From: an uncultured virus (IMG/VR IMGVR_UViG_3300006417_000262) | Taxonomy: Duplodnaviria > Heunggongvirae > Uroviricota > Caudoviricetes | Length of the DNA stretch: 64,000 bases | Virus record (IMG/VR): IMGVR_UViG_3300006417_000262 | Location: 1 to 64,000 of that record | Direction: 5' to 3' (one strand) | Part shown: positions 20,285 to 48,330 of the stretch, in pieces | How positions within the stretch are numbered: the first letter of the stretch is position 1 | How the letters are laid out: every line of letters begins with the position of its first letter | The notes under the pieces: model-generated | Seen by the model: the letters and a program-made list of their open reading frames with translations, nothing else | Database searches by the model: none | Told to the model about the DNA's origin: nothing | Program-made: the position numbers and the translations under genes

Positions 20285-21796
20285 TCATGGACTAAGCTGC
20301 ACGGCCAGGATTGTGTCAGGTGAATTGAACAGGATGGATCGCACTTGGGATGAGGTCGTTCCATCGGCAAGCACGAGGGTGAACTTGTGGGTGCCAGAAG
20401 GCAGTGACGTCCTCGTTGGGATGTCCCCCACCTTGACCCCACCTACCCACACGGCTGCTCCTGTAGGGCCCGAGAGGCTCACGGTGCCCGTGATGGCGCC
20501 AGGCTCTACGGGGGCCGTGGGGGGTTCTGGAGTGGGTGTCGGAGCGACCGCCCGAGCTATGGGGGCTGGCGGCTCCGTGGGGAGCGGCTCTTGCACGGGC
20601 TCTGGAGCCTTTGGCCTCGGCGGCCTCGGCGGGGTCACCTTAGCCACGACGGGCTCTTCTGGAATGACCTCCGGGGGTGGGACTTCCACGACGGGCTCTT
20701 CTGGAATGACTTCGATGACGGGAAGCTCGGCCGGTGCCAGCGGAGGCAATGCAGCGGTCACCGTGGCCGCAGGTCGGGTCACGACGCCCATGGTCGCGAA
20801 TCCCACCGCCACCATGAGGACGACGCCGAGCCCCGCCAGGCCAACCATGGAGACGCCAAGGAGAGCACGAGTGGGTCGAGGGGTTGCAGCGATGTTGTAG
20901 CTGCTCGTCTCCTCTGTGATCATTCGTCCGACTAGCGCGTCATCGGCCATCTTGGTGCGGGGGGCCGGGATCTGCTCTGCCCAACGACGTAGGGTGGGGC
21001 CTGGCAGCTTGGTGGAAGCGTCTTCGCACCACTCGATGAGGCTGCGTGCTGAAGGCCGTGCCGCGGGGTCGTGGACGCACATCCACTGCATGAGGGATGC
21101 GAGGCTTGGGTCGTACTTGGCGAGGAGGTTTGCCTGCCTCTCCAAAAGGATGGAGTGATCGTCAGGGCTTAGCCGGGCTGTGCCGAATGGTACGCCCATG
21201 CATAGCTCGTAGAGGGTGACGCCCAGCGCATAGATGTCCGCCGCCGCACTGGCAGGGGTGCCGACCAAGCACTCCGGGGACATGTAGCGGGGAGACCCGA
21301 TGACGCAGTGGGGGGCCGTGGCTGCTTCGCGGTACTCCCCCACCGTCTTGGCAATGCCGAAGTCGAGGATCTTGACCCGACCTGCGTGGAGGGCCAGGTT
21401 GGCAGGCTTGATGTCCCGGTGAATGACACCACGACGGTGAGCATAGTCGAGGGCTTCCGCGACCTGGCTGACCATCTCTACGGCCGCCCGCGGTGGAGGG
21501 GTGATGGACAAGCGATTGAGCGGGGGGCCTTGTACCAGGTCCATGACGATGCATGGAGCCCCATCGATGGTCGTCAGCCAGGTGGCTGGCGCAATTCCCG
21601 GATGCTGGAGGGAGGCAGCGACGCGGGCCTCGTCCCGAAACCGAGCGCACAGTTCCTCAGCCTCTACACCTTCGACCCAACGGAGGACTTTGACCGCCAC
21701 CGTCCGGGAGAAGTTGTTGTCGCCGGACACCTTGGCTTCGTAGACCGAGCCGAAGCTGCCCGACCCTAGCACTCGGATGATCTGGTACGTGCGCAT
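20285..21796 (-). CDS. membrane-anchored Hanks-type Ser/Thr protein kinase with a Pro-rich linker and PEGA-like C-terminus
   Basis: LGSGSFGSVY, VAVK, HRDIKPAN, DFG, GSPRYMSPE, DIYALG; TM segment LLGVSMVGLAGLGVVLMVAVGF; GAAVWVGG...GDIP...GTH. Confidence 0.9.
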   Translation of the reverse strand: MRTYQIIRVLGSGSFGSVYEAKVSGDNNFSRTVAVKVLRWVEGVEAEELCARFRDEARVAASLQHPGIAPATWLTTIDGAPCIVMDLVQGPPLNRLSITPPPRAAVEMVSQVAEALDYAHRRGVIHRDIKPANLALHAGRVKILDFGIAKTVGEYREAATAPHCVIGSPRYMSPECLVGTPASAAADIYALGVTLYELCMGVPFGTARLSPDDHSILLERQANLLAKYDPSLASLMQWMCVHDPAARPSARSLIEWCEDASTKLPGPTLRRWAEQIPAPRTKMADDALVGRMITEETSSYNIAATPRPTRALLGVSMVGLAGLGVVLMVAVGFATMGVVTRPAATVTAALPPLAPAELPVIEVIPEEPVVEVPPPEVIPEEPVVAKVTPPRPPRPKAPEPVQEPLPTEPPAPIARAVAPTPTPEPPTAPVEPGAITGTVSLSGPTGAAVWVGGVKVGDIPTRTSLPSGTHKFTLVLADGTTSSQVRSILFNSPDTILAVQLSP

Positions 21797-21797
21797 G

Positions 21798-22247
21798 TTA
21801 GGTCTGCCCCCGTGCGATGCGAACCAATGCGGCACCGATGCCCGTCTCCGGTGCCTCGTAGGCACTCACCGGAACACCGGCCATCTGGAACTGGTCGGGG
21901 GGCGGCAGCTCGCCCCGCACTCGGTGGAACGCTTCGACCGCCTCAGCGGATCGGCCACGCACGAGGACGAGGGGTCGGGCCATGAGGACTTCAACACCCG
22001 CAGCGGTTTGCAGGAGTCGGTTCAGCACCCGATCTCGCGTCGCCTGATCCACGTAATGTAGAGCAAAGAGGAGCGCCCACACACGCACGGCACGGGTGTT
22101 GACGCAAGTGTGGGGGCTCAAAAGCCGTAGGAGACCGTCCGTCTCCACCTCCTCCCATGTGGCGGGGTCCCCCATCAAGGCCGCATGTGCTTGATTCAAG
22201 GCATCCCTGTCCGAGTCTGCAACCAGGAAGGCGAGGGAACGGGTCAT
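21798..22247 (-). CDS. hypothetical protein, candidate immunity protein
   Basis: 149 aa; ATGA overlap with the upstream putative toxin gene. Confidence 0.5.
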   Translation of the reverse strand: MTRSLAFLVADSDRDALNQAHAALMGDPATWEEVETDGLLRLLSPHTCVNTRAVRVWALLFALHYVDQATRDRVLNRLLQTAAGVEVLMARPLVLVRGRSAEAVEAFHRVRGELPPPDQFQMAGVPVSAYEAPETGIGAALVRIARGQT

Positions 22248-24379: not shown

Positions 24380-26914
24380 CTATCTACGCAGAAACCCGTA
24401 GTCGTAGACGCCTGGCTGCAGTCGCTCGGAGAGCGCCTTGAACGCTTCCTGTAGCGCCTTCCACTCGTCGGGGAACAAGTCCCGCCAGAGGTGCTTGAGC
24501 TGGTACACACCCGCGTCGTAGGCCATTAGGTGAAGCTCCGGCTTCCCGGCCGCGTAGCTTTCCCGGACGGGGAGGGACTTGACCCATAGGGCGTCAAGGA
24601 GGTCGAGCACCTTGCGGGCGTCGGGGGAGAGGTTGAGGGTCGGTAGGACGTGGGCGAAGTAGGCGTCGCCCGTCTGTTCCCACGACTTGTCTCCGGCGAG
24701 AGTGCCGAGCACATCGCTGGTGTCCCGCGACTTGACGGGTTCGGCCTTGCAGTCCCGGTAAAGGGTGGGCGTCTCGGCGGTGTCGAGCGCCTTGAGGGTG
24801 TCCTTGCGGGTACGCCAGAACCAGTGGTTCTTGATGCGCCAGGACTTGCCCTTGTAGGTCACGTCCCGCATCGCGGTGGCCTGGTTGAACCTGTGGATGA
24901 GGGTGAAGCAGTGGGTGTCATCCACCCACTGCTCGTAGCCGGACTTCTTCTCGTCGGGGCGAAGGTACTCGTCCTTCTGCGTGTCCCACGCCTCCAGCAC
25001 GAGCTTCCGAGCCCCATAGAGGGCCACCGCACGACGCCAGTTGCTGTAGGTCTGGCACACCCCGTGGCCCCGCGAACTGCCACCCGACACGATGTAGGTG
25101 GAGTCGTTCGCCTCCACCAGATTGTTGCCGTGGCAAGTCATGTACGCAAAGCTCCCGGGGATCACCGTGGATTGCCCCTTGTCAACGATAGACAGGCCGC
25201 TGCTCATCTGTGGTGCGTCCGAGCCCTTGATGCCTTTGATGGGTTCTCGCACCCACTCCGACGCCTCGCGGTCGTCCGAGTTGTAGACGACCTTGTTCCC
25301 AGTCGAGACCACGGAGAAGTCACACTCGTCCTTGAGCACGATCCCAAGGTCGACGGTCTTGTCCGTGGTGCCCGTGTTCCACACCGTGAACGAGATGCCC
25401 CACCTTCCGGACACGTCCGCGAAGTGCGACGCCTGGAACAAGAACCCGCCCTTGTAGGCCCGGTGCCCGTACCACCAGTCCCGGAACGGGCGGTACGACC
25501 CGCTCGACATGAACGTAGGGACGGAGAACAGGGCTACGGTCGAGTTCTTGAACCCATACTCGCGGGCGACCACCGAGCACCGGTACATGAACTGCGCGTA
25601 GAGCTGCTGCGACGGGGCACCGAGCTTGGCCGACTTCATCTCCTCGTTCGCACGGGTCAACGCCATCCCTGCCTTGTGGCTGGACTTGAACGTCTCGATG
25701 CTGTTCGCCGTTCCGTAGGGCGGGTTCATCAGGAACACGAGCCGCTTCCCGGACTTCGCGAGCGCACGGAGCATCCCGTCCACCTCGTCCGGGATCTGGT
25801 TCTTCCCGTCGTTCTCGAAGAAGGGGGAGTCGGACCCCGGGTTGAGGAAGTCATACTGGAAGACCCACTTGCCCCCCCACCCCTGCTCCTTCATCACCTG
25901 CACGTCCGGACGCTCCGCCGTTGAAGACACGAGGCAGCCCCAATCGTTGTAGTCCCGCGTGAGGTTCGCCGTGCCGGCCGCTGGATCCCACACCACGCAC
26001 TCCTGCCGCCACCGAGGCCCAAGCACCCGGTCGAGTTCCTTGTGCGCCTCAGCGACCCACAGGGCGGGCGTGAAGAAGGCCCCTTGCCGACGGCGGGCGT
26101 CGTCTTCCACGAGACGATCCTTCATCCCGTAGAAGGACTCGATCTCGGACGGCCTGTACCCCTGAGCGAAATGGTCGAAGAACGAGCGGTACTGCTCCGC
26201 GTTGACGAGAATCCCGTCGTCGTAGCCTGGCACGACAAGGACTCCCCGCTTCGTCGGGTGGATGTACACGTCGCCCGGTTGGAAGAGACACCGAAGGAAC
26301 ACGTCCACCTGCTCAACAGGTGTCAGCCCTTGCGAGCCGAAGACGCGGTCGCGCCAGTAGAGGAAGATGGCCCCGAGGTTCGCCGACGTGGCTCGGACTT
26401 GATGACGCGACCCGTTGGCGAGCGCCTCCACCTTCTCCACGACGGCTCGGAAGTCGAGCATCTCGTCCACGTCGTAGACGTAGGGGAGGAGGTTTACCCC
26501 CTGCACGAGAGCACGGGTCAACTCCGGCGACCCCTTGGACGGGGCGAAGGTCCAGTCGATGTCGAGGTCGAGGAAACCCCGCACGGACGCCGTGGCGAGC
26601 ACGAAGCACTCGTTCTTGTCCCCGACGAGCAGAACGTCTGGAAGCACCTCCCCGGCCTGCTCGAACCGCTTGAGGTAGCCGAGCATCTGGCCAAGGACGT
26701 TGCATACGGGGGCCTTCGCCTTGAGGTCCTGGTCGTACTTCGCTTCCAGGAGGAGGCGGACAGACGGGGCACCCCATTCGGCCACGCCGTCCGACCCGAA
26801 GGGCGAAGTCCATGCCGCGTTCGGGCGGACGTGAGAGATTTCCGCCCGGTAGGCGTTCTCTACGTCCTTTTCGACGCGAGCCCCTGCAAGGGCCTGCTTG
26901 GTGGACTTCCTCAT
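24380..26914 (-). CDS. fused restriction endonuclease / N6-adenine DNA methyltransferase (Type IIG/IIL-like)
   Basis: N-terminal SDG...LLLEAK...Q..GY nuclease motif; GAFFTP, VWDPAAGTANL (motif I), FLMNPPY (motif IV); C-terminal TRD-like region. Confidence 0.8.
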   Translation of the reverse strand: MRKSTKQALAGARVEKDVENAYRAEISHVRPNAAWTSPFGSDGVAEWGAPSVRLLLEAKYDQDLKAKAPVCNVLGQMLGYLKRFEQAGEVLPDVLLVGDKNECFVLATASVRGFLDLDIDWTFAPSKGSPELTRALVQGVNLLPYVYDVDEMLDFRAVVEKVEALANGSRHQVRATSANLGAIFLYWRDRVFGSQGLTPVEQVDVFLRCLFQPGDVYIHPTKRGVLVVPGYDDGILVNAEQYRSFFDHFAQGYRPSEIESFYGMKDRLVEDDARRRQGAFFTPALWVAEAHKELDRVLGPRWRQECVVWDPAAGTANLTRDYNDWGCLVSSTAERPDVQVMKEQGWGGKWVFQYDFLNPGSDSPFFENDGKNQIPDEVDGMLRALAKSGKRLVFLMNPPYGTANSIETFKSSHKAGMALTRANEEMKSAKLGAPSQQLYAQFMYRCSVVAREYGFKNSTVALFSVPTFMSSGSYRPFRDWWYGHRAYKGGFLFQASHFADVSGRWGISFTVWNTGTTDKTVDLGIVLKDECDFSVVSTGNKVVYNSDDREASEWVREPIKGIKGSDAPQMSSGLSIVDKGQSTVIPGSFAYMTCHGNNLVEANDSTYIVSGGSSRGHGVCQTYSNWRRAVALYGARKLVLEAWDTQKDEYLRPDEKKSGYEQWVDDTHCFTLIHRFNQATAMRDVTYKGKSWRIKNHWFWRTRKDTLKALDTAETPTLYRDCKAEPVKSRDTSDVLGTLAGDKSWEQTGDAYFAHVLPTLNLSPDARKVLDLLDALWVKSLPVRESYAAGKPELHLMAYDAGVYQLKHLWRDLFPDEWKALQEAFKALSERLQPGVYDYGFLRR

Positions 26915-27141
26915 CCGAGGTCGTTGTAGATGCCGACGGCCAGATCCAGGTCGTCGCCCACGTAGACGTCGACCCAATCCTTGTCACCGACACCCCGGCG
27001 AATGACGACGTACGTGCCAGCCCGCTGGCCCAGCTCCTTGCGGGTGGCCTGGCCTACGATGGTCGCCGACGCGGCCATCCGGTACTTGTCCAGGAATCTC
27101 CGGATCTCGGCCGGGTTGTCGATGATGTGGGGCTTGACCAT
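26911..27141 (-). CDS. hypothetical protein
   Basis: MVKPHIID..., AAGGAG RBS, ATGA overlap with the REase-MTase gene. Confidence 0.65.
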   Translation of the reverse strand: MVKPHIIDNPAEIRRFLDKYRMAASATIVGQATRKELGQRAGTYVVIRRGVGDKDWVDVYVGDDLDLAVGIYNDLG

Positions 27142-27167
27142 TTGTGGTCTCCTTTGGTTCCCCACCC

Positions 27168-27193
27168 CTACACGCCACTTGCCGACCCTGAAC
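27168..27193 (-). promoter_or_regulatory. class A motif GTTCAGG-N15-GTAG
   Basis: 3 nt after the upstream TGA; heads the unit containing the REase-MTase. Confidence 0.65.
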
Positions 27194-27196
27194 CTG

Positions 27197-27298
27197 TCAC
27201 CCGAGGAGGGCACGTAGGATGATGGCAAGCACACCGACCCCTACAAGGGCGAGCCACACGCGGGGGTCGGTTGGGGGTCTCCAGGGCGAGGTGTCCAT
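27197..27298 (-). CDS. 33-aa single-TM micropeptide
   Basis: MDTSPWRPPTDPRVWLALVGVGVLAIILRALLG*, lying between two class A motifs. Confidence 0.45.
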   Translation of the reverse strand: MDTSPWRPPTDPRVWLALVGVGVLAIILRALLG

Positions 27299-27307
27299 AG
27301 GGCTATG

Positions 27308-27334
27308 CTACGCGACACCACGCTTCTGCTGAAA
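27308..27334 (-). promoter_or_regulatory. class A motif variant TTTCAGC-N16-GTAG
   Basis: Same spacing as the exact copies; abuts the upstream TAG. Confidence 0.45.
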
Positions 27335-27568
27335 CTACAGGAGCCGCAGGGGGTCGATAGAGGTGCCGTTGCGGCGCGATTCTGAATTCGAACGCCACCA
27401 TTGGCCATATGATAATGATCGCACTACGGTTCCGCCCCATGATCGCGATTGTGAGCGGTAATACTTCGCCCCATACAATGTTAAAAATTGAGATTGTACG
27501 GCAACGCCGACATGGACTCTAGACCACGATAGCTCGTGGTCCGTTAATGATGGCACGCGAAGCATCAT
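27335..27568 (-). CDS. small Ser/Arg-rich protein, MMLR...IDPLRLL family copy A
   Basis: 77 aa; start overlaps the stop of copy B (TGATG). Confidence 0.6.
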   Translation of the reverse strand: MMLRVPSLTDHELSWSRVHVGVAVQSQFLTLYGAKYYRSQSRSWGGTVVRSLSYGQWWRSNSESRRNGTSIDPLRLL

Positions 27569-27813
27569 CACAGGAGCCTCAATGGATCGATCATCGGGCC
27601 TGCGCGAGGTCCCGAACGCGACATAGATGACGCCTGCATTGAGACCGTGCGTGAGCGGTACGACCTGACAAACGCATAGTACGTCATGCAGGATGACCGG
27701 AGCCGATAGCCATACCAAATGCAATTTGCAGGATGTGAAACCGAGTGCGAGCCGGGCCCGCCCCCCGCCGTTGCCTCTGACCCACGGCCATTGGTCGTCA
27801 ACCGGAGCATCAT
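27568..27813 (-). CDS. small Ser/Arg-rich protein, MMLR...IDPLRLL family copy B
   Basis: 81 aa; same N- and C-termini as copy A. Confidence 0.6.
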   Translation of the reverse strand: MMLRLTTNGRGSEATAGGGPGSHSVSHPANCIWYGYRLRSSCMTYYAFVRSYRSRTVSMQASSMSRSGPRAGPMIDPLRLL

Positions 27814-27905
27814 GGCGTGCCGTACCAGAGCATGGCGAGGTGGGCAAGGGCAACGATGTCGGACACGGGTGGCTCCTCTCGCCCCACCTACACGCTTCGC
27901 GCCCG

Positions 27906-27932
27906 GTTCAGCCCCAACCCTAATGCGTGTAG
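27906..27932 (+). promoter_or_regulatory. class A motif GTTCAGC-N16-GTAG on the + strand
   Basis: Upstream of 27963; orientation follows the gene. Confidence 0.6.
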
Positions 27933-27962
27933 AGAGTCCCGAACACCACAGGGAGCAACCTC

Positions 27963-28286
27963 ATGACCATCGAACATCCGCACCTCGCCCCTGCCGACTG
28001 GTCGGGGGACGTGTGCATCTACTTCAGCCGGCGGTGGGTCGCCGCGGCCCGCTTGCTCGGCATCCCGTCCGATGGTTGCATCCCCCCGCACTGGTCGCAG
28101 ACCGTGGCCTTCGCGAACGCAGCGGCCCTTTTCCGCATCGCAGATGGTGTGAAGTACCTCATGACCCAGGCGAGGTCCGCCATCCGAAAGCCTCAACACC
28201 TCATGAGCGACGAGGACCGCATCGGCATCTTCCTCGCCCTCGACTGCACGGACGAGTGCGGCCGAAGCCTCCAGAGCGCGCCATGA
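27963..28286 (+). CDS. hypothetical protein
   Basis: 107 aa, GGGAG RBS. Confidence 0.65.
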   Translation: MTIEHPHLAPADWSGDVCIYFSRRWVAAARLLGIPSDGCIPPHWSQTVAFANAAALFRIADGVKYLMTQARSAIRKPQHLMSDEDRIGIFLALDCTDECGRSLQSAP

Positions 28287-28510
28287 GCCATCTTCCTGAG
28301 AAGCTACGCGAGTGGCGCACCGCCAAGGGCTGGAGCTACCGGGACTGCGCAGCCATTGCCGGAGGCTCGCAGAGCACCTGGCACCGATACGAGAACGGCC
28401 GGGAGTGCATTCCCGTGCACAGCCTCGTAGCCCTGTGTGGGGTGGATGATGCCTGTGCCATCCTCAAGGCTGCGTTTTCGGATCGGCCTTCGGAGTCGGT
28501 TCCGAAGTAG
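28283..28510 (+). CDS. XRE/Cro-like HTH transcriptional regulator
   Basis: LREWRTAKGWSYRDCAAIAGGSQSTWHRYENG; ATGA overlap. Confidence 0.8.
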   Translation: MSHLPEKLREWRTAKGWSYRDCAAIAGGSQSTWHRYENGRECIPVHSLVALCGVDDACAILKAAFSDRPSESVPK

Positions 28511-28617
28511 GTCGCTCTGACACGGGATGAGCCTGGCCTTGCACCTGTGCCATTGCGGAGCGGGGCTGGACGATCTTGGTGATGGGCGTCTTGGACATTG
28601 TGGGTTTCCTGAGTCGG

Positions 28618-29046
28618 TCAGTCATGGGGCCTTCTACGCCGTTGGATGGGGAAAGGTCTGGGAGACCCATCATCCCATCCGACGAGGCCCACATCGTCGT
28701 ACGTCGCCGTGATGCCGTATCCGCCAAACAGGATGCGCGCCACACGCTGTTGCTGCATGGTGTCGACGTGACCCGCCCAACCGGCCCCCCACTCGGCTTG
28801 ACCCATGGTGAGGAGGGTCTTGGATAGCCAAATCTCGGGGCGCTCCCACTCGAGAGGGCCGTGCTCAATCACGTAGGGCCACGTGCTGTTGACCTTGATG
28901 ATCTCCTCGTGAATCGCCCGGATGAGGTTCACTTCCGTTGGCACCCACAAGGGGTCGGAGTCGAGTATGCGCCGAATCAGGTCCTTGTGTCGCTTGGGGT
29001 CGATTCGCACCCTCATGTAGAAGACCAGGTCAACACGGTCGGCCAT
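28618..29046 (-). CDS. hypothetical protein
   Basis: MADRVDLVFYM..., GGAG RBS. Confidence 0.55.
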   Translation of the reverse strand: MADRVDLVFYMRVRIDPKRHKDLIRRILDSDPLWVPTEVNLIRAIHEEIIKVNSTWPYVIEHGPLEWERPEIWLSKTLLTMGQAEWGAGWAGHVDTMQQQRVARILFGGYGITATYDDVGLVGWDDGSPRPFPIQRRRRPHD

Positions 29047-29097
29047 GTCCACTCCACGGTTGTGCCCTATACACGGTTGTGGTTCATCGGCGGGCAG

Positions 29098-29124
29098 GTT
29101 CGGGCTAGAACCGCAGCAACGTAG
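29098..29124 (+). promoter_or_regulatory. class A motif variant GTTCGGG-N16-GTAG on the + strand
   Basis: Ends 7 nt upstream of ATG 29132, suggesting a possible leaderless transcript. Confidence 0.55.
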
Positions 29125-29131
29125 ATGGGTC

Positions 29132-29371
29132 ATGCGGCACCTGATCACCAAGCGACTCGACCCCTGGCACAAGCAGACCTATCGCAGGGTGCTGCATGAC
29201 GAGCGCCCAGAGCAGGGTCGGTGTCGTGTCCTCGCGATGAACGGTGAACTGCCCTTCGACCGCGTGGCCTTCGTGTCCGTCCCGTGGTCGGATGAGCGGG
29301 TGCGGGTTGTCTGGGCACTCCTGGAGCATGCCGGTCGGACTACCTCGCTTGGGTGGTTCTTCGTGGCCTAA
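29132..29371 (+). CDS. hypothetical protein
   Basis: MRHLITKRLD..., 79 aa. Confidence 0.5.
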   Translation: MRHLITKRLDPWHKQTYRRVLHDERPEQGRCRVLAMNGELPFDRVAFVSVPWSDERVRVVWALLEHAGRTTSLGWFFVA

Positions 29372-29372
29372 T

Positions 29373-29387
29373 CGCTGATTTGTCTAT
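29373..29387 (+). promoter_or_regulatory. class B motif CGCTGA-N6-TAT
   Basis: Near-identical to the 3355 copy (CGCTGATTTGTCTATG vs CGTTGATCTGTCTATG). Confidence 0.55.
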
Positions 29388-29418
29388 GGTAGTGGAGGGG
29401 CATTACCTGGAGCCAGTC

Positions 29419-29700
29419 GTGGTTGAAGAGCTACTCGCCTTAAATGTAGTGGTTGTCGTGTTGGGGTTCATCACCACCAACATTTTCGCGGCCACTCGCA
29501 AGGACACCCGCCTCGATACGGCCATAGAGTCTATGTCCAGGCTCGAGCAGTCGGCGATGGCCACTTCCAAGATGCTTGACGATGTGCGAACGACACAGGA
29601 AAAGGACCAGCGCATCCGCCACGACCTTCGTGACTATGTGCAGGGGCTTGAGGTTCGCGTGGCGCGTCTGGAAGAGCGGATGCGCGTCACACCACGATGA
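29419..29700 (+). CDS. single-TM coiled-coil protein (holin/XhlA-like architecture)
   Basis: N-terminal TM LLALNVVVVVLGFITTNIF; C-terminal coiled coil LEVRVARLEERM. Confidence 0.55.
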   Translation: MVEELLALNVVVVVLGFITTNIFAATRKDTRLDTAIESMSRLEQSAMATSKMLDDVRTTQEKDQRIRHDLRDYVQGLEVRVARLEERMRVTPR

Positions 29701-30020
29701 AGACAGTTGTCATTCTCGACGACAGCGAGGATGTTCGGGATGAACTCCTGCGGCGGTTCACCATTGCCGGGTGGGTGGTCTACACGGCCAAGAGCTTGCA
29801 TGAGTACCGCCAGCTTGCCCCCATGTTCCCGGTCAACGTCCTAATCGTGGATCTCATGCTTCCTGATGGGAGCGGAAGATCCGTGATAGGACACAGTGGG
29901 CCGCAGGTCATCGTGTTTTCTGGCGACGACACGCCTTTGAAAGGCGTGTTTGCGCAGGTGACGAAGCCGCACAGTCTCGGGGATATCGTGAGGCTAGCCG
30001 AGGCCGCCATCATACGGTGA
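29697..30020 (+). CDS. stand-alone response-regulator receiver (CheY-like) domain
   Basis: VILDD, IVDLMLPDGSG (phospho-Asp), VFSG, TKP. Confidence 0.85.
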   Translation: MKTVVILDDSEDVRDELLRRFTIAGWVVYTAKSLHEYRQLAPMFPVNVLIVDLMLPDGSGRSVIGHSGPQVIVFSGDDTPLKGVFAQVTKPHSLGDIVRLAEAAIIR

Positions 30021-32607: not shown

Positions 32608-32964
32608 CTACCATTCTCGCCCCCTACGGCCAGTGTTGTAGCCCCGGTCACTGCTGTAGCTGACAGGCGCCGAGTCGCGACCCCGACGCTCACCCCCGCC
32701 TGCATGAGGCCGTGACTCGGCGATGGAGACCCGCATGGCTCGCCCATTGAGGTTTTGGCCATCCATTGCCTCTAGGGCCTTCTCCGCGTCAGCCGCAGAC
32801 GCGAAGGTGACGAACCCGAACCCGCGAGATTGCCCCGTCTCTCGATCCGTGACGAGCTTCACTTCATGGATGTCCCCGAAAGACTCGAAGACCTGCCACA
32901 AGTCTTGGTCACCCACACTCCAGGCGAGATTTCCTACGAACAGCTTGCTGCCTACCACTTTCAC
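32608..32964 (-). CDS. RRM (RNP-1) RNA-binding protein with a Gly/Arg-rich tail
   Basis: KLFVGNL (RNP2), RGFGFVTF (RNP1), LNGRAMRVSIA. Confidence 0.92.
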   Translation of the reverse strand: MKVVGSKLFVGNLAWSVGDQDLWQVFESFGDIHEVKLVTDRETGQSRGFGFVTFASAADAEKALEAMDGQNLNGRAMRVSIAESRPHAGGGERRGRDSAPVSYSSDRGYNTGRRGREW

Positions 32965-33127
32965 TCCTGTCTCGCAGAAGAAGCTACGAGAGTCGACCCC
33001 CACTACTCAATTTCTCGTGCAGAACCAATTCGCCCGGCTAAGTTTCCCCAGAGTTTGGTTTTTTTGCCTCGTAGTGGTTTTCTTGCAGAAGTTCTTGTAA
33101 TTTGCTATGTTCTGTGTGGAGGTGTTC

Positions 33128-35328: not shown

Positions 35329-36597
35329 ATGCTCCCGAACGATACCCCCACTACGGGTGGTCTCTACCTCTTGCGTTTCCCTAATGGGGACTATTACGGA
35401 GGGAGGTCGCAGAACATCCGTAAGCGATGTAGCGAGCATCGGTGCAACTTGCGCAAGGGGGTGCACACGAACCGCTACATGCAGGCTGTGTTCAACAAGT
35501 ATGGGGATTTCGCTTTGGAAGTCCTCGTACACGTGGAGGGTGAGCCGGAGCAGATTCAGGCCGAACAGGTTTGGTTAGATGAGCATGTGGGGCGGTCGGG
35601 TTGCCTCAATTTCGGGCGGGATGCAGCCTATGGGTTGAAGCGTGGGCAAAAGAAGTCCCCCGAGGCAATGGTCAAGATTCGCGAGGCTAGCGCACGGCGC
35701 AGGGGTGTCCCCCAAGATCCGGAGGTGGTGGCCAGACGGGCCGCCTCGAACACGGGCCGCACGAACACTCCCGAGACCATCGTCAAGATGTCCAAGTCCG
35801 CGAAGCGCCGTGCTGCGGAGCGGCCTACGTCACACGACGAGCGGACTCGAGCGTTGATCTCGTCGCAGCAACGTGGCCGGGTATGGATTACAGATGGCGT
35901 CACGAACCGCCGTGTGCGTCCAGAGGAGGTTGACACACACGTTTTGAACGGGTGGGTTCGTGGTAGGTTCGTTCGTGGGGCGGCTGCTGTGAGTCGAAAC
36001 GATGCTCCGACCACGGGCGGCCTCTATCTCCTTCGTTTCCCGAATGGGGATTACTACGGAGGGAGGTCGCAGAACATCCGCAGCAGGTGCCACCTCCATA
36101 GCAGCCAGTTGCGGAATGGCACTCACGCCAATCCGTGGATGCAGCGGGTGTATGACAAGTACGGACAGCCGGCCATTGAAGTTCTATCCGCCATCCCACA
36201 AAAGGAGGCACGGGTACTGGCTGAGCAGGCGTGGCTTGATGAGAACGTGGGTCGACCGGGCTGCTTGAATTTGAGTCGGTCGGCTGATTCAAATGCGATG
36301 GAGGGGCGTCATCATTCCGAAGAGACGCGGCGACTCATATCCAACCGACTTCGGGGGCGGGAGTTTACAGAGGAGCACCGCAGGGCTCTCTCGGATAGTG
36401 CCACCGGGCGTCAGCTGTCTAGTGATGCAGGGGCGAAGATAGCCGACGCCAACAGGAGTCGCGTGTGGACGAATGCGGCGAAGGAGCGGTCTTCGGCATC
36501 ACACACGGGGAAGAGGCACACGGCTGAGACACGGATGAAGATGGCAGAGTCGGCCAGGCTCCGGGAGGCCCGAAAGAGGGAGGCGTGTTTGGAATAG
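35329..36597 (+). CDS. tandem double GIY-YIG homing endonuclease with NUMOD3 motifs
   Basis: Two copies of ND(T/A)PTTGGLYLLRFPNGDYYGGRSQNIRxRC...EQ.WLDE.VGR.GCLN; HHSEETRRLIS; HTAETRMKM. Confidence 0.85.
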   Translation: MLPNDTPTTGGLYLLRFPNGDYYGGRSQNIRKRCSEHRCNLRKGVHTNRYMQAVFNKYGDFALEVLVHVEGEPEQIQAEQVWLDEHVGRSGCLNFGRDAAYGLKRGQKKSPEAMVKIREASARRRGVPQDPEVVARRAASNTGRTNTPETIVKMSKSAKRRAAERPTSHDERTRALISSQQRGRVWITDGVTNRRVRPEEVDTHVLNGWVRGRFVRGAAAVSRNDAPTTGGLYLLRFPNGDYYGGRSQNIRSRCHLHSSQLRNGTHANPWMQRVYDKYGQPAIEVLSAIPQKEARVLAEQAWLDENVGRPGCLNLSRSADSNAMEGRHHSEETRRLISNRLRGREFTEEHRRALSDSATGRQLSSDAGAKIADANRSRVWTNAAKERSSASHTGKRHTAETRMKMAESARLREARKREACLE

Positions 36598-43100: not shown

Positions 43101-44170
43101 TGGCACTGCTTGGTACGACACCACCGGCAAGCCGGTACGACGGGTTGACCGTGGGGCCGGCGTTCGCCTACACGTTTGAAACACAGGAGGGCATCCCGGT
43201 TGACGGGACCAATGCGCTCTTGCGAGACTTGTCGCCTTTCGTGCTTCGGATCGTACCGCCTGCAGCACTCCTAGAGGCAGCGGCCACGTCATCGGAGGAG
43301 GCTGTTGATCTCATCCAGGCGGCGGCGTTGGGGGCGAGTACGACGACGCGCAGCACTTCCATTGCCACGGTGCTTCGCACGGTTCTTGCGACAGGGGCCG
43401 CGGGATACTCGACTGGACAGCTCGAGTCATTCGTGGCGAATGGCCAGTTCTACACGGACGCCGATGCGGCGTTCGTGTCCACGCTCGCGGACGCATTCAC
43501 GGCGGCGGACATCGCCTTGCAGCTTGAGCGCGTCCTGGCGATGGAGCCATTGGTTCTCCTCGTGAACCCGTCAACCATGAATGTGCAGCGTGCCAAGCTC
43601 CAGAGTTTTCAGTCGAAGACGCGTGAAGGGTACGTGTTCGAGGCGTGGGGGGAGGAGCAGATGACAATCTCCTTCTCAGGGTCTACGGCGGGGTTCGTGG
43701 CTGGTGCCGTGGACACAAGCAGCCCGTACGGTGCGCAGACAACGGGGGTCACGTCCTCCGTGTCGGGTTACCAGGAGGCGGCTCGACGGGATTCCGCGGC
43801 CTGGCAGAACTTCCAGGCGCTCTACCATTTCTACAAGAACAACGGCTACATCTACGACACCGTGCGGAAGTCCTACGCGCATCTGTTCATTGGTGCCGTG
43901 GCGATTGATTATGACCAGTGGACGTACGAGGGCCACATTGAGTCGTTCGCCTACAAGTACGACGAAGCGATGCCTCATCGGGTGGAGTTTGACATGGAGT
44001 TCAAGGCGTCGCGGATCTACGACTCGGCCCGATCTTCCTCGACGGTTAGCCCCATCTCCATGGCGCTAACCAATCAGGCCGCAGAGTCGTTCTTGCGTGG
44101 GCAGTTGACGTCTGCATCCCCCACGGAGTTCTCGCAGCCTCCGCTAGATAACATTCTTGGGAGGGTGTGA
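43100..44170 (+). CDS. paralogous tail-tube initiator / baseplate protein
   Basis: LLVNPSTMNV...KTREGYVFEAWG...YEGHIESFAYKYDEAMPHRVEF, similar to the preceding gene. Confidence 0.6.
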   Translation: MALLGTTPPASRYDGLTVGPAFAYTFETQEGIPVDGTNALLRDLSPFVLRIVPPAALLEAAATSSEEAVDLIQAAALGASTTTRSTSIATVLRTVLATGAAGYSTGQLESFVANGQFYTDADAAFVSTLADAFTAADIALQLERVLAMEPLVLLVNPSTMNVQRAKLQSFQSKTREGYVFEAWGEEQMTISFSGSTAGFVAGAVDTSSPYGAQTTGVTSSVSGYQEAARRDSAAWQNFQALYHFYKNNGYIYDTVRKSYAHLFIGAVAIDYDQWTYEGHIESFAYKYDEAMPHRVEFDMEFKASRIYDSARSSSTVSPISMALTNQAAESFLRGQLTSASPTEFSQPPLDNILGRV

Positions 44171-47100
44171 TGAGCGTAGAGAGCCGACCGTATGTGGGCA
44201 CCTGGAAGCTCAATAATCGACAGGTTGTGAAGGTCACGCCGGACGCCTTGGTTTATTTCAACGGCGACCTTTCGCTTCCTGGGTGTCCTACATGCTCGGG
44301 GAAAATTGAGATCCAGCAGTACATCACTCAGGTGAGTGTGGATCCCTCCACGGAGGGTCCCGCTACTGCGAGCATCTCGCTTCATGTCCCACGGTCGGCT
44401 GGCGATGGACTCGTTCGGGATGGGAACTTCATCATCCAGCCCGGCTTGGAAGTCCACATCTACATGCGCGGCTACTTCCCGGTGAAGGGGCTCACTGCCG
44501 GGGTCATGCCGGAGCAGACGGGTGGTGTTGACGTGCAGAACGCCGTGATGTACCCCTACTACCTGGTGCATCATGGTGTAATTACAGATGTGGGCTACGA
44601 CTACTCTGGGGGGGAGCACCAGGTATCGATCTCGTGCGCGGACTTGCTCCACTTCTGGCAGTACCAGCGCATGAGCACGAACGGGTCGCTGTTCGGGGCC
44701 CGTCCGATGAACTCGAAGGTCGACATGAGCTTGGTTGGTCACAACATGACGGGCATGAGCCCGTTTGCCATCATCTACCAGCTCTTCCGTGATGTACAGG
44801 GTTCGGCTGGTGGTGTGGAATTCGCTCTCGGCAACAAGACCAATGCCGCCGCGAACTCGACAGTGATCGGTGAGTCCTTGTTCTCCCTCTCCATCTTGTA
44901 CTGGCAGAAGCGGTTTGCGCAGTCCATGACGTCTCTACGTATGTACGGAGTGGATGGATCTTTGTACAACGGCTTGCAGGCTGCCTACCTGGCACGACTG
45001 GGTCAGGATGACCCAGCGAAGATCGCCAAGAAGGTTGGGGCAAAGGGGGCGCAGTCGTCCGAAGTGAACCCGATGCTGGATCAGACGGCACGGGTGCTTG
45101 GGTTCGACCCCTTCTCACTCAACCAGGGGGCGTCGGGCGCCGAAAACAACGAGGACGGGCAGCTCGGGATCAACATCGCGCAGCTGCAGGCGTTCGTGTC
45201 GGACATCTCACAGTGGGGCAACGTCAACTTTTTCGAGTCGGTGTACGCTACCAAGATGGATATCGCCAACAACGTGAAGGAGGCGGCAGGCTACGAGTTC
45301 TACCAGGATGTGGACGGGGATATTGTGTTCAAGCCACCGTTCTACAATCTCGACACGTCCGAGTCGCGGGTGTACCGGCTCGAGGACATCGACATCATCT
45401 CCTTCTCCGCGTCATCGCAGGAGCCACAGGCCACGGTGGTGAAGGTTACGGGCGGCCATTTCCGCAACACCACGGGCACGGGGTTGGAGAACAGTGAGTG
45501 GGGTGTGCGTGCGGAGTTCATCGATTATCGGTTGGTGGCGAAGTTCGGGTGGCGGCAGGAGACGTTCGAGACGACCTATCACACGGACGCACAGGCAATG
45601 TTCTTTGCCTGCGTGGCGCGGTTCGACATCTTCAACATCGGCATGAACAGTGCCACGGCGACTATCCCCGTTCGCGCGGAACTTCGCCCTGGGTACCCGG
45701 TCTACGTTGCTTTCATGGACTGCTACTACTACCTCCATAGCTTCAACCACTCGGTTGCCTTTGGTGGACAGTGCGTCACCACACTCAACCTTGTGGGGAA
45801 GCGGGCGAAGTTCTTCGCTCCGGGAAAGGCTCGCGGGGACGGCACACCCGCACGGATTGAGGACATTCACCTCAACAACATGTATGAGCCGGCACTTCCG
45901 CTGCAAATCACGGAGATTGATGGGGAGACGATCATGCCCCGGCTGCAAGGGTTCCCCAATGTGGTGATGACCTTGGACCCCACCGGGATCAACCCACTAT
46001 CGTTCTCGATCGGAACAGACCCCGCGGATCTGCAGACCGAGGACGCCATCCGCAACTTGATCCAACAAGCGTTGATGGGACGCCTCTCCGTTCTTCAGCA
46101 GGGCGCGGATGATGGCACATCGGATGAAGCCACGCGGGCTACGGATGGTCCCTGGCAGCTTCAAACAGGGGATGAGGCCAACCCGCTCGTGATTGGGAGT
46201 GTGGCCGAGCTTCTTGCTCAAGCGGCGCAACTACAGTCATTCAATGTCCAGGCGGCAGAGTCGGGGGTGACCGAGGCGGAACGTGAGGACGTGATGGCCG
46301 CCACGGCTCCGTTGCAGGCATTGGTGCTTGCGGCCCGAGACGTGATGGCCAAGCTGTTTCCGGAGTCCGAGTCGTCGGCCCGGTATCTCGCGCTCCTAAG
46401 CGATACGAAGGCCACGTACAATCCAGGCGCCAACATCCCTGGGTACTACCGCTACTACTCCTCCTCGCACCCTGACCCGGAGATGCAGGGGCCCGCCAGT
46501 TGGGAAGTGAGTGAGACGGGCGTGGTGTCTGTTGGTACGCAGACGAAAGTGGATGCATCGAAGAGCCAGACCTCGACGCAGTTCAAATCCACTACGTCTG
46601 GCGGCACCACGTTCGTCACGGGGGCCGAGGTGAAGGCGGGCATCCCTATTCTCAAGCCTGGCACCACGGACCAGACGGTCTCGACGCCGACGCACCAGAT
46701 CACCACGTTCCAGATTGCTCGCTATCCGATCAACCAGGAAGGCACGAAGTCCGTGGAGACGGGGCAACTGCCGTCAGGATTCCCTACTACGGCCTTGGCT
46801 ACGGCCTATCGGGAGTACTTCCTGCCGAAGATGCAGAACGTCCCCGTGGGGCCGACATCCACCGTCGGGGATTCGTTCACGTCTACGTTTGATCTCGTGG
46901 CGAATCTCATCCGCGAGAAGGTGGGTGTGAAGCCAGAACTCCCCCATTCATCGGAGACAGTGTCCTCACTGCGTGGATTCGACACACCGAGCAAGCTCAC
47001 GTTTCTGGCACAGGACATGGCCGACGCTTGTGCGACGACGGTGAGCAATGCCCTCGTGTCGGAATACAGGATTGTGCAGCCAGTCACGGGTGTGGTCACG

Positions 47101-48330
47101 TCGTCATTCGGTACCCGCAGCCCCCCCAAGACGAATCAGGGGGAGGGGTCCACCCAACATCGGGGCACGGATTTCGCTGGAGCCATTGGCGATCCGATTT
47201 ACGCGGCGCTCGGAGGCACCGTTGTCTTCGCAGGGCCACGGGGTGGGTACGGGAACCTGCTGATCATCCAGCACGTAGAGGGCACGACCACGCGCTACGC
47301 GCACTGCGACACGATTCTGGTGGCAGTTGGGGATGTTGTGACTGCCGGGCAAGAGGTTGCCACGGTGGGTGCGACGGGCAACGTGTCTGGCCCCCACTTG
47401 CACTTTGAGGTGCGAACAGCCACAGGTGTTGCAGTCAATCCGGAGTTGTTCCTAAGCGGCGCGACCGTGGCTGACATCGACGCGATCTGGTCTAGCGTGT
47501 GGCCACAAGGAGCACAGGTGAAGGCCGGGGTGGGGCGACGCCCACGCCAGAAGGCCCAAACGCAGGTCAAGTACTACGACGTCCCTGTGCTGCCAGTATC
47601 CGATGCGCGCGGCTACGAGGTGGTGGGCACCTATCGCTATGGGCGGGGGCTTACGCTTGAATCGCTTGAGTCCGCGTCGGGATTCGTGTCTAGCTCCACG
47701 GACGACTATGAGTCCATCGAGGCGTTCCTGGACGCGATTGAGGCCGACGTGTCGGAGGCGGCGTTGGGCGTGGCTATTGGGAACCTGAGCCCCTCCCTTC
47801 GGGCTCAGCTTGCGTCTCGCACAATGAGTGAGACGGTCACCAACATCGTCCTCTCTTTGGACAATCCAGGTGGCTCGCAAACGGACATTGGAGGAATGAA
47901 CTTCCCCGTGGACAAGCGGGAGTTCACGCAGAAGTCGACGCTCACAAACGCGGCATACGGTTTGGCCGACATGGTTGCCGCCTCCGGTAGTCGCTCCGTG
48001 TGCGCCTGTAAGGGCGCAGAGGCCGACACGTTGCTGCAAGCATTCGACACGGAACTCTTCGTGGGTCTGGAGGATGTGGGCACGGGCGAGACGGAGATGG
48101 TGCAGGACTGGCTCACCGAACAGATGACATCCTCGTCCATGGATTGGTCTGCGACGCAGGCAGCGTATCGAGGAACAGTGCGCGACATGAACACGACGGG
48201 TCTGGTGAGCGCGGTGCGCGATGCAGTCAACACGATTGCCGGTAATTTCAACCAGACCGGGGAGCAATTGTCCTCCATCGGTGCGACGGCAGGAGCACAG
48301 ATCACTGCTGCATTTGAAGGGGATGACTGA
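44167..48330 (+). CDS. baseplate hub protein with an inserted M23 (LytM) peptidase domain at about 47070-47455
   Basis: Hub-like N-terminus (YEFYQDVDGDIVFKPPFYN; ELRPGYPV); M23 motifs VTSSFG.R, HRGTDF, GGYGN...IQH, YAH, GPHLHFEV. Confidence 0.75.
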   Translation: MMSVESRPYVGTWKLNNRQVVKVTPDALVYFNGDLSLPGCPTCSGKIEIQQYITQVSVDPSTEGPATASISLHVPRSAGDGLVRDGNFIIQPGLEVHIYMRGYFPVKGLTAGVMPEQTGGVDVQNAVMYPYYLVHHGVITDVGYDYSGGEHQVSISCADLLHFWQYQRMSTNGSLFGARPMNSKVDMSLVGHNMTGMSPFAIIYQLFRDVQGSAGGVEFALGNKTNAAANSTVIGESLFSLSILYWQKRFAQSMTSLRMYGVDGSLYNGLQAAYLARLGQDDPAKIAKKVGAKGAQSSEVNPMLDQTARVLGFDPFSLNQGASGAENNEDGQLGINIAQLQAFVSDISQWGNVNFFESVYATKMDIANNVKEAAGYEFYQDVDGDIVFKPPFYNLDTSESRVYRLEDIDIISFSASSQEPQATVVKVTGGHFRNTTGTGLENSEWGVRAEFIDYRLVAKFGWRQETFETTYHTDAQAMFFACVARFDIFNIGMNSATATIPVRAELRPGYPVYVAFMDCYYYLHSFNHSVAFGGQCVTTLNLVGKRAKFFAPGKARGDGTPARIEDIHLNNMYEPALPLQITEIDGETIMPRLQGFPNVVMTLDPTGINPLSFSIGTDPADLQTEDAIRNLIQQALMGRLSVLQQGADDGTSDEATRATDGPWQLQTGDEANPLVIGSVAELLAQAAQLQSFNVQAAESGVTEAEREDVMAATAPLQALVLAARDVMAKLFPESESSARYLALLSDTKATYNPGANIPGYYRYYSSSHPDPEMQGPASWEVSETGVVSVGTQTKVDASKSQTSTQFKSTTSGGTTFVTGAEVKAGIPILKPGTTDQTVSTPTHQITTFQIARYPINQEGTKSVETGQLPSGFPTTALATAYREYFLPKMQNVPVGPTSTVGDSFTSTFDLVANLIREKVGVKPELPHSSETVSSLRGFDTPSKLTFLAQDMADACATTVSNALVSEYRIVQPVTGVVTSSFGTRSPPKTNQGEGSTQHRGTDFAGAIGDPIYAALGGTVVFAGPRGGYGNLLIIQHVEGTTTRYAHCDTILVAVGDVVTAGQEVATVGATGNVSGPHLHFEVRTATGVAVNPELFLSGATVADIDAIWSSVWPQGAQVKAGVGRRPRQKAQTQVKYYDVPVLPVSDARGYEVVGTYRYGRGLTLESLESASGFVSSSTDDYESIEAFLDAIEADVSEAALGVAIGNLSPSLRAQLASRTMSETVTNIVLSLDNPGGSQTDIGGMNFPVDKREFTQKSTLTNAAYGLADMVAASGSRSVCACKGAEADTLLQAFDTELFVGLEDVGTGETEMVQDWLTEQMTSSSMDWSATQAAYRGTVRDMNTTGLVSAVRDAVNTIAGNFNQTGEQLSSIGATAGAQITAAFEGDD

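Follow-up and report, generated by a model that had tools for sequence, protein, structure and literature searches.

Coupled mini-genes with a constant C-terminal tail and serine-alternating bodies in a jumbo phage fragment

The window, i.e. the whole stretch of 64,000 nucleotides that was analysed, carries on its minus strand two overlapping mini-genes, ORF1 and ORF2, and a short leader ORF ahead of them (Table 1). The positions and sizes of these three frames are as the preliminary description gave them, and the leader does carry the ribosome binding site and the ATGA overlap assigned to it. As the leader has no tail, it was not counted as a family member. The common C-terminal end of ORF1 and ORF2 was also recovered. 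DPLRLL occurs twice in the six frames of the 71.8-kb virus record that contains the window, both times in these ORFs, which are the sole pair among 851 open segments to have their last 7 residues in common (0 of 40 shuffles). An RNA run (X9) gave no contig over ORF1/ORF2; its matches were a 36-nt stretch with 6 mismatches in the leader and 228 nt of exact identity in the HTH gene, and it is uninformative on expression.

Table 1. Coordinates of the features discussed (positions are those of the window unless a contig is named)
Feature	Position	Strand	Remarks	Basis
Shine-Dalgarno-like AGGAG	27873..27877	-	6 nt upstream of leader start	sequence
Leader ORF	27810..27866	-	18 codons, hydrophobic, GTG start; ATGA coupling to ORF1	
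ORF1	27568..27813	-	81 aa, net charge +8; family member	
ORF1 conserved tail	27568..27600	-	10 codons + TGA; TGA overlaps ORF2 GTG/ATG start	
ORF2	27335..27571	-	77 aa from 27568 or 78 from overlapping GTG at 27571; net charge +6; family member	
ORF2 conserved tail	27335..27367	-	10 codons + TAG; chain ends here	
Protein kinase gene	20285-21865		Ser/Thr, with membrane segment	Pfam scan
Response-regulator receiver	29697-30020			
RRM protein	32608-33003			
33-aa ORF	27197-27298		36 nt past ORF2	
844-aa ORF	24380-26914			
422-aa ORF	35329-36597		tail region	
M23 domain end	47400-47455		domain in 44167-48330	
L029 14-gene array	L029:1570-7159		fills gap between AAA ATPase and DUF2201 metallopeptidase/VWA gene, 22 nt from each	
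Split NAD-dependent DNA ligase	L023:547-3621			

The virus record was estimated to be 16% complete, and the window is part of a jumbo phage fragment of about that share. A 1781-aa protein of the record matches annotated tail sheaths, the best match being in the uncultured LR745208.1 (485 kb; 46.6% over 93%), while Tunturiibacter phage Tunturi_5 gave 31.9% over 52%. The surroundings of ORF1/ORF2 are accessory genes, and a Ser/Thr kinase, an RRM protein and an HTH protein lie near. Besides the kinase and the RRM protein the phage encodes a response-regulator receiver. The 33-aa ORF past ORF2 has a hydrophobic helix and a weak PHROG match (E 0.004). The 844-aa ORF had no match in Pfam and PHROG searches; its FFTP and NPPY motifs are presumably methyltransferase-like, and strain X4 is strongly divergent within it (25500-25839), resembling a swapped specificity segment. 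The 422-aa ORF of the tail region is made of two similar GIY-YIG/NUMOD3 halves.

When the junction DNA pattern was searched in metagenome contigs, 12 rows representing 10 distinct loci were obtained. L028 is the window locus itself (100% over 8023 nt), whereas L023/L024/L025 and L029 are two further contigs from one assembly with the window locus, at coverages of 6.5 and 6.2 against 5.8. The L023 and L029 arrays were met again in a second assembly as L026, L031 and L032. L027 and L030 were rejected as chance matches to the pattern. The array flanks gave tetranucleotide correlations of 0.946 and 0.948 with the 71.8-kb record, against 0.953 for the record with itself and 0.54-0.57 with LR745208.1. 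Similar coverage and this tetranucleotide match make it likely that both arrays and the window pair belong to one phage genome.

Chain walking gave 30 ORFs. Four were left out (the 18-aa leader, L029:3112-3339 with its decayed tail, and a frameshifted member present as two halves, L029:4830-5056), giving 26 full members of 56-92 aa in three loci, 12 in L023, 12 in L029 and 2 in the window. One more tail is truncated by the end of the L023 contig; the array heads seen are those of the window and L029, the L023 head lying off the contig. The arrays hold 14 genes (L029) and at least 13 (L023), and the family comes to about 30 genes in total. In L029 the array stands between two genes that are usually partners, an AAA ATPase (phrog_1297) and the DUF2201 VWA gene, and the VWA domain retains a DxSxS metal-site motif. 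The L023 array stops ahead of an NAD-dependent ligase, and the gene for this DNA ligase is cut in two by an ORF for a TnsA-like endonuclease, which may be an intron. A recent tandem duplication giving rise to ORF1 and ORF2 was rejected, since many other pairs are more alike (theirs ranks 136 of 325); the window pair is best read as an outlying two-gene offshoot of the family. Tandem gene arrays have been described in phages G and 121Q, where, in the passages of PMC5646251 that deal with them, tandem duplication likewise enlarges one family in a jumbo phage; the mini-genes differ in that, the tail aside, members can barely be aligned, and in that they occupy several arrays.

The chaining of the two ORFs had been described as a TGATG overlap. 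The overlap exists, but a 4-nt RTGA overlap is the better description: it fits 25 of the 26 junctions and is the only reading possible in 4 of them, where no TGATG start is permitted. As this overlap makes codon 2 begin with A, the common 'MM' of the two proteins is largely its by-product. The fixed MMLR N-terminus did not survive the comparison, MLR being found in just these 2 of the 26 members; the family head is M-[MITL]-x-F/L, with F or L at most 3 residues after the leading Mets in 30 of 37 cases. No Sm-fold gene lies directly upstream at either head seen (in the window there is the 18-codon leader and in L029 the AAA ATPase, 22 nt upstream), and DUF6948 and LSM profiles had no match in the one record searched, the 71.8-kb one that is about 16% complete. 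No promoter-like site was found in 26900-28600 with the sigma-70 consensus as sole pattern. Unlike the PeSL cassettes of T4-like phages (PMC2839356), the mini-genes overlap and leave no spacer, so that there is no promoter/stem-loop cassette between them.

The 26 full members end in the nearly invariant motif GPxIDPLR[L/V]L, and the residues are kept (out of 26) as follows: G 24, P 21, I 25, D 26, P 23, L 25, R 25, L/V 25 and L 25. At the DNA level 25 of the 26 tails are distinct and the codons use all synonyms, including TTG and CTN for Leu and AGG and CGN for Arg. Across all pairs pS is 0.74 and pN 0.11, and identity is 0.45 at the third codon position against 0.96 at the second. The selection on the C-terminal peptide that the preliminary description had read from two tails is therefore borne out across the members. 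The conserved element could instead be a DNA or RNA site for recombination or coupling, with the ORFs incidental to it. The motif is indeed present at every gene junction, and an SD-like word lies inside the tail codons at 13 of 26. We regard this as scarcely credible, because the synonymous sites are saturated while the residues are fixed and because all 26 frames are open, where shuffled members have a mean chance of 0.085 each and the +1 frame is open in none of the 26. As judged from these comparisons the mini-genes are under selection as proteins, and the chained genes are presumably translated. A 172-aa ORF with a TTG start (27335-27853) was also considered and rejected, because its frame stays open in 4 of 26 members, about what chance would give; frames of this type are the source of mis-extended gene calls, e.g. 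P0002 and P0024.

The end of the M23 domain has the G-x-x-[VI]-[DN]-P-x-x-hydrophobic-L spacing of the family tail. Tail-like spacing has 3 non-family matches in the 71.8-kb record, and the likeness is treated as a common strand-cap-helix motif, not as homology. No tail fused into a larger protein was found among 8000 candidates scored, which is a weak test. A candidate contact of the invariant tail Asp with the metal site of the VWA protein (DUF2201) encoded after the L029 array scored 0.14, against a mark of 0.32.

The bodies between head and tail are rich in Ser (20%), Arg (11%), Trp (5.3%) and Cys, with Asp and Phe scarce, and the net charge of the members goes from 0 to +12 with a median of +6. 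The AT-richness noted earlier for the pair applies to ORF2 (GC 0.526, as low in 1.2% of 234-nt windows) and not to ORF1 (0.598, 26%). In the same way the S-x-S periodicity stands for ORF2 alone (6 against 2.1 expected, p 0.004) and not for ORF1 alone (4 against 2.35, p 0.17), and it is strong family-wide: Ser pairs at lag 2 number 119 against 61 expected (z 9), and odd lags are depleted. The commonest body hexamers are of TCG-NGG types, and TCG-NGG codon pairs make up 10% of the body pairs, and up to 38% in the purest member, compared with 0.3-1.2% in 8 control genes. The longest pure Ser-alternating run has 24 residues in one member and 4-10 in the other 25. On this sequence evidence the alternation of Ser with Arg, Trp or Gly is inherited from a TCG-NGG hexamer repeat that has now mostly decayed. 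The in-ORF tandem repeats of Borgs are comparable, in that nucleotide repeats of a giant mobile element change fast and are translated into disordered repeats of amino acids; they are unlike the mini-genes in being, in the parts of PMC9879509 concerned with them, perfect, recent, A-rich and placed within larger proteins, whereas here an old, decayed, GC-rich repeat forms the whole body.

Only 6 of the 325 body pairs can be aligned at z > 4. For the two well-alignable pairs (100 codons) body omega is 0.46 (CI 0.19-0.94) and 1.07 (0.47-2.42), the upper bound spanning positive selection, and Ser is retained at 10 of 15 and 13 of 18 sites, better than other residues. By these values the bodies change by point substitution under weak constraint. 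The bodies are probably disordered, according to the models: the AF2 model of ORF2 has pLDDT 51 and pTM 0.14 with no fold except a helix at residues 73-76, a low confidence that may stem from the poor alignment, and the Atlas model of P0007 has pLDDT 0.31. Hydrophobic residues alternate too (z 3.6), so that the bodies may be partly folded as beta-strands.

Follower peptides and Ser-derived D-Ala are known from RiPPs. The mini-genes could accordingly be imagined as RiPP-like precursors in which the tail would be a follower peptide for an enzyme that modifies the alternating serines, a short constant tag on a variable Ser/Thr/Cys-rich body being in keeping with this, as is the alternation of Ser with Trp (S-W adjacency 64 against 32 expected). 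We hold this to be very improbable, as dehydratase, YcaO and radical SAM are absent among 56 Pfam-scanned proteins (from the window and the array flanks, most of the genome lying outside) and no cleavage site is visible. A related and highly unlikely reading is a modified-peptide library, in which a tail-reading enzyme encoded elsewhere in the genome would convert the alternating serines, so that about 30 precursors would give distinct Trp-rich peptides of alternating residues, active on membranes or nucleic acids.

A profile built from the 26 members returned 18 proteins from 920 candidates, in all of which the tail is terminal, one of them having one extra residue. Five are known members or strain copies, and 13 are new and individually weak (E 0.002 to 8). 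All 13 end in the tail and they show Ser periodicity at z 7.8 (with P0020 standing in for P0006), which is partly circular as they were found by the profile. A Cys variant of the tail is present in 7 of the 13 and in none of the 26 full members; these seven are probably from another phage, and the other six may lie in unsampled parts of the window's phage. The closest phage records, LR745208.1 and PP885688.1, are without the family. Against Pfam, PHROG and PDB the 26 members gave a best E of 0.086 and 0.075 for the first two, from one member each, and no PDB hit at E 10. Two single-sequence searches with ORF2 gave, respectively, no candidate and one chance match in an unrelated 1041-aa ORF. 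P0001, the sole match of a two-sequence profile, was rejected as an unrelated repetitive protein. Scans of viral contigs gave chance matches (15, 6 and 2 stretches) or none, with 0 of 5 candidates confirmed in another scan, and queries with neighbour genes in viral contigs were confirmed in 0 of 4 and 0 of 1 cases, all in a contig set that may exclude records close to the window's genome. Among GenBank phages P0007 was unmatched and one L023 member matched at E = 6; the ESM Atlas gave no usable match. No description of the family was found in the literature within reach, which leaves aside subscription journals and bioRxiv supplements. Databases list too few of these genes, because gene callers often skip such mini-ORFs or extend them out of frame.

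Over 25500-29700 the window was compared with contigs from four public runs. The local hypervariability that had been expected was not seen, the strains being only about 1-2% apart at the window locus. X4 has 47 substitutions over 25839-29700, X6 has 2 over 27133-27447 and 29 over 27421-29101, and X8 has 0, 6 and 1 across its three pieces, which are of low depth and together span 27366-27914. The X4 and X6 contigs each carry about 30 extra letters somewhere in 27421-29101, which may include an indel inside ORF1/ORF2. Other contigs match the window only at the tail and junction, with depths of 10.5 and 11.2 against 9.4 for the phage in X4 and 7.0 against 6.3 in X6.

It was conceivable that the family is an effector library, each body being meant for another target and actively diversified, either in a DGR-like manner or by positive selection. 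The scarcity of alignable body pairs is consistent with this, and so is a strain copy of one array member with 5 of 67 residues changed; the copies of two others are changed at just 2 of 84 and 1 of 86 residues. No reverse transcriptase (PF00078) was found in the one record searched, of 71.8 kb and about 16% complete. There is no near-identical template/variable pair among the 325 body pairs (best pN 0.31-0.39) and no long repeat in 26000-29500. The 8 strain substitutions, a small and unpolarised sample, form a mixed spectrum (4 from A, T>G twice, G>T and C>T) and are not adenine-specific. As the AF2 model gives no common scaffold either, we consider an effector library distinctly unlikely. 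Of the diversifying small-protein family first proposed, the diversity and the selected tail are upheld by the 26 members, and the special mutation mechanism is not. P0024, a strain copy seen through an out-of-frame gene call, exceeds L029 by 8 codons within the purest repeat tract, and we infer from the protein one in-frame gain of 24 nt (four hexamers) by slippage. This gain and the two decayed members fit a course of duplication, slippage, drift and loss.

We propose, at about even chances, that the conserved tail is a docking motif on a composition-constrained, basic and disordered body that is made in bulk, the dose coming from copy number. The coupled chains would give a bulk output of short basic proteins, in each of which a brief hydrophobic head is followed by a body that goes back to a (Ser-Arg/Trp/Gly)n hexamer repeat and then by the constant GPxIDPLR[L/V/C]L. 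The tail, i.e. a strand, an Asp-Pro cap, a short helix and the free C-terminus, would dock on one phage or host partner, while the body, to judge by its charge, may bind nucleic acid or other polyanions through its composition and not its exact sequence. The diversity would have arisen mostly as a side effect of gene duplication and loss, slippage of the hexamer and point mutation, with copy number acting as dose. Dosage alone does not account for the keeping of divergent rather than near-identical copies.

In T4 the internal proteins carry their tag at the N-terminus. If the mini-gene products were virion internal proteins, their tail would be a packaging tag, doing at the C-terminus what the capsid targeting sequence does in T4, and the basic Ser/Arg bodies would condense DNA or be injected; the phage Ser/Thr kinase (Table 1) might release them by phosphorylation. 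The T-even internal proteins are indeed highly diverse small basic proteins with only a short fixed tag in common, as presented in sections of PMC3012670. The family differs from them in its C-terminal tag and in its low-complexity bodies. Moreover, the structural module holds none of the three family loci, T4 IPI* is compact (same sections) while the family bodies get no predicted fold, and their net charge is modest. We therefore find this explanation unlikely.

The tail is always terminal and hydrophobic, which would also suit decoys whose tails keep a C-terminus-reading host protease or defence sensor saturated, the bodies being disposable unfolded substrate. The amplification of T4 tifA as counter-defence (portions of PMC9391042) offers a precedent, and tifA is like the mini-genes a small phage gene with copy number as dose; however, according to the same portions, tifA was recently amplified and inhibits a known toxin, whereas the mini-gene copies are old and divergent. 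Decoys are likewise unlikely in our opinion, because a search of genome_contigs for bacterial or archaeal genes with the motif at their end gave no intact one (3 short chance frames with the exact DNA pattern) and the lasting Ser alternation would be unneeded in a decoy.

In the docking reading that we prefer, the family would show how a diverse set of genes can grow out of a hexamer microsatellite when no dedicated mutator is at work. The coupled mini-genes take up about 7 kb of the jumbo phage and hold constant just ten terminal residues and a Ser-alternating composition, and since constancy is restricted to these two, the functional unit is isolated. A single synthetic tail peptide could serve to capture the partner of the whole family.
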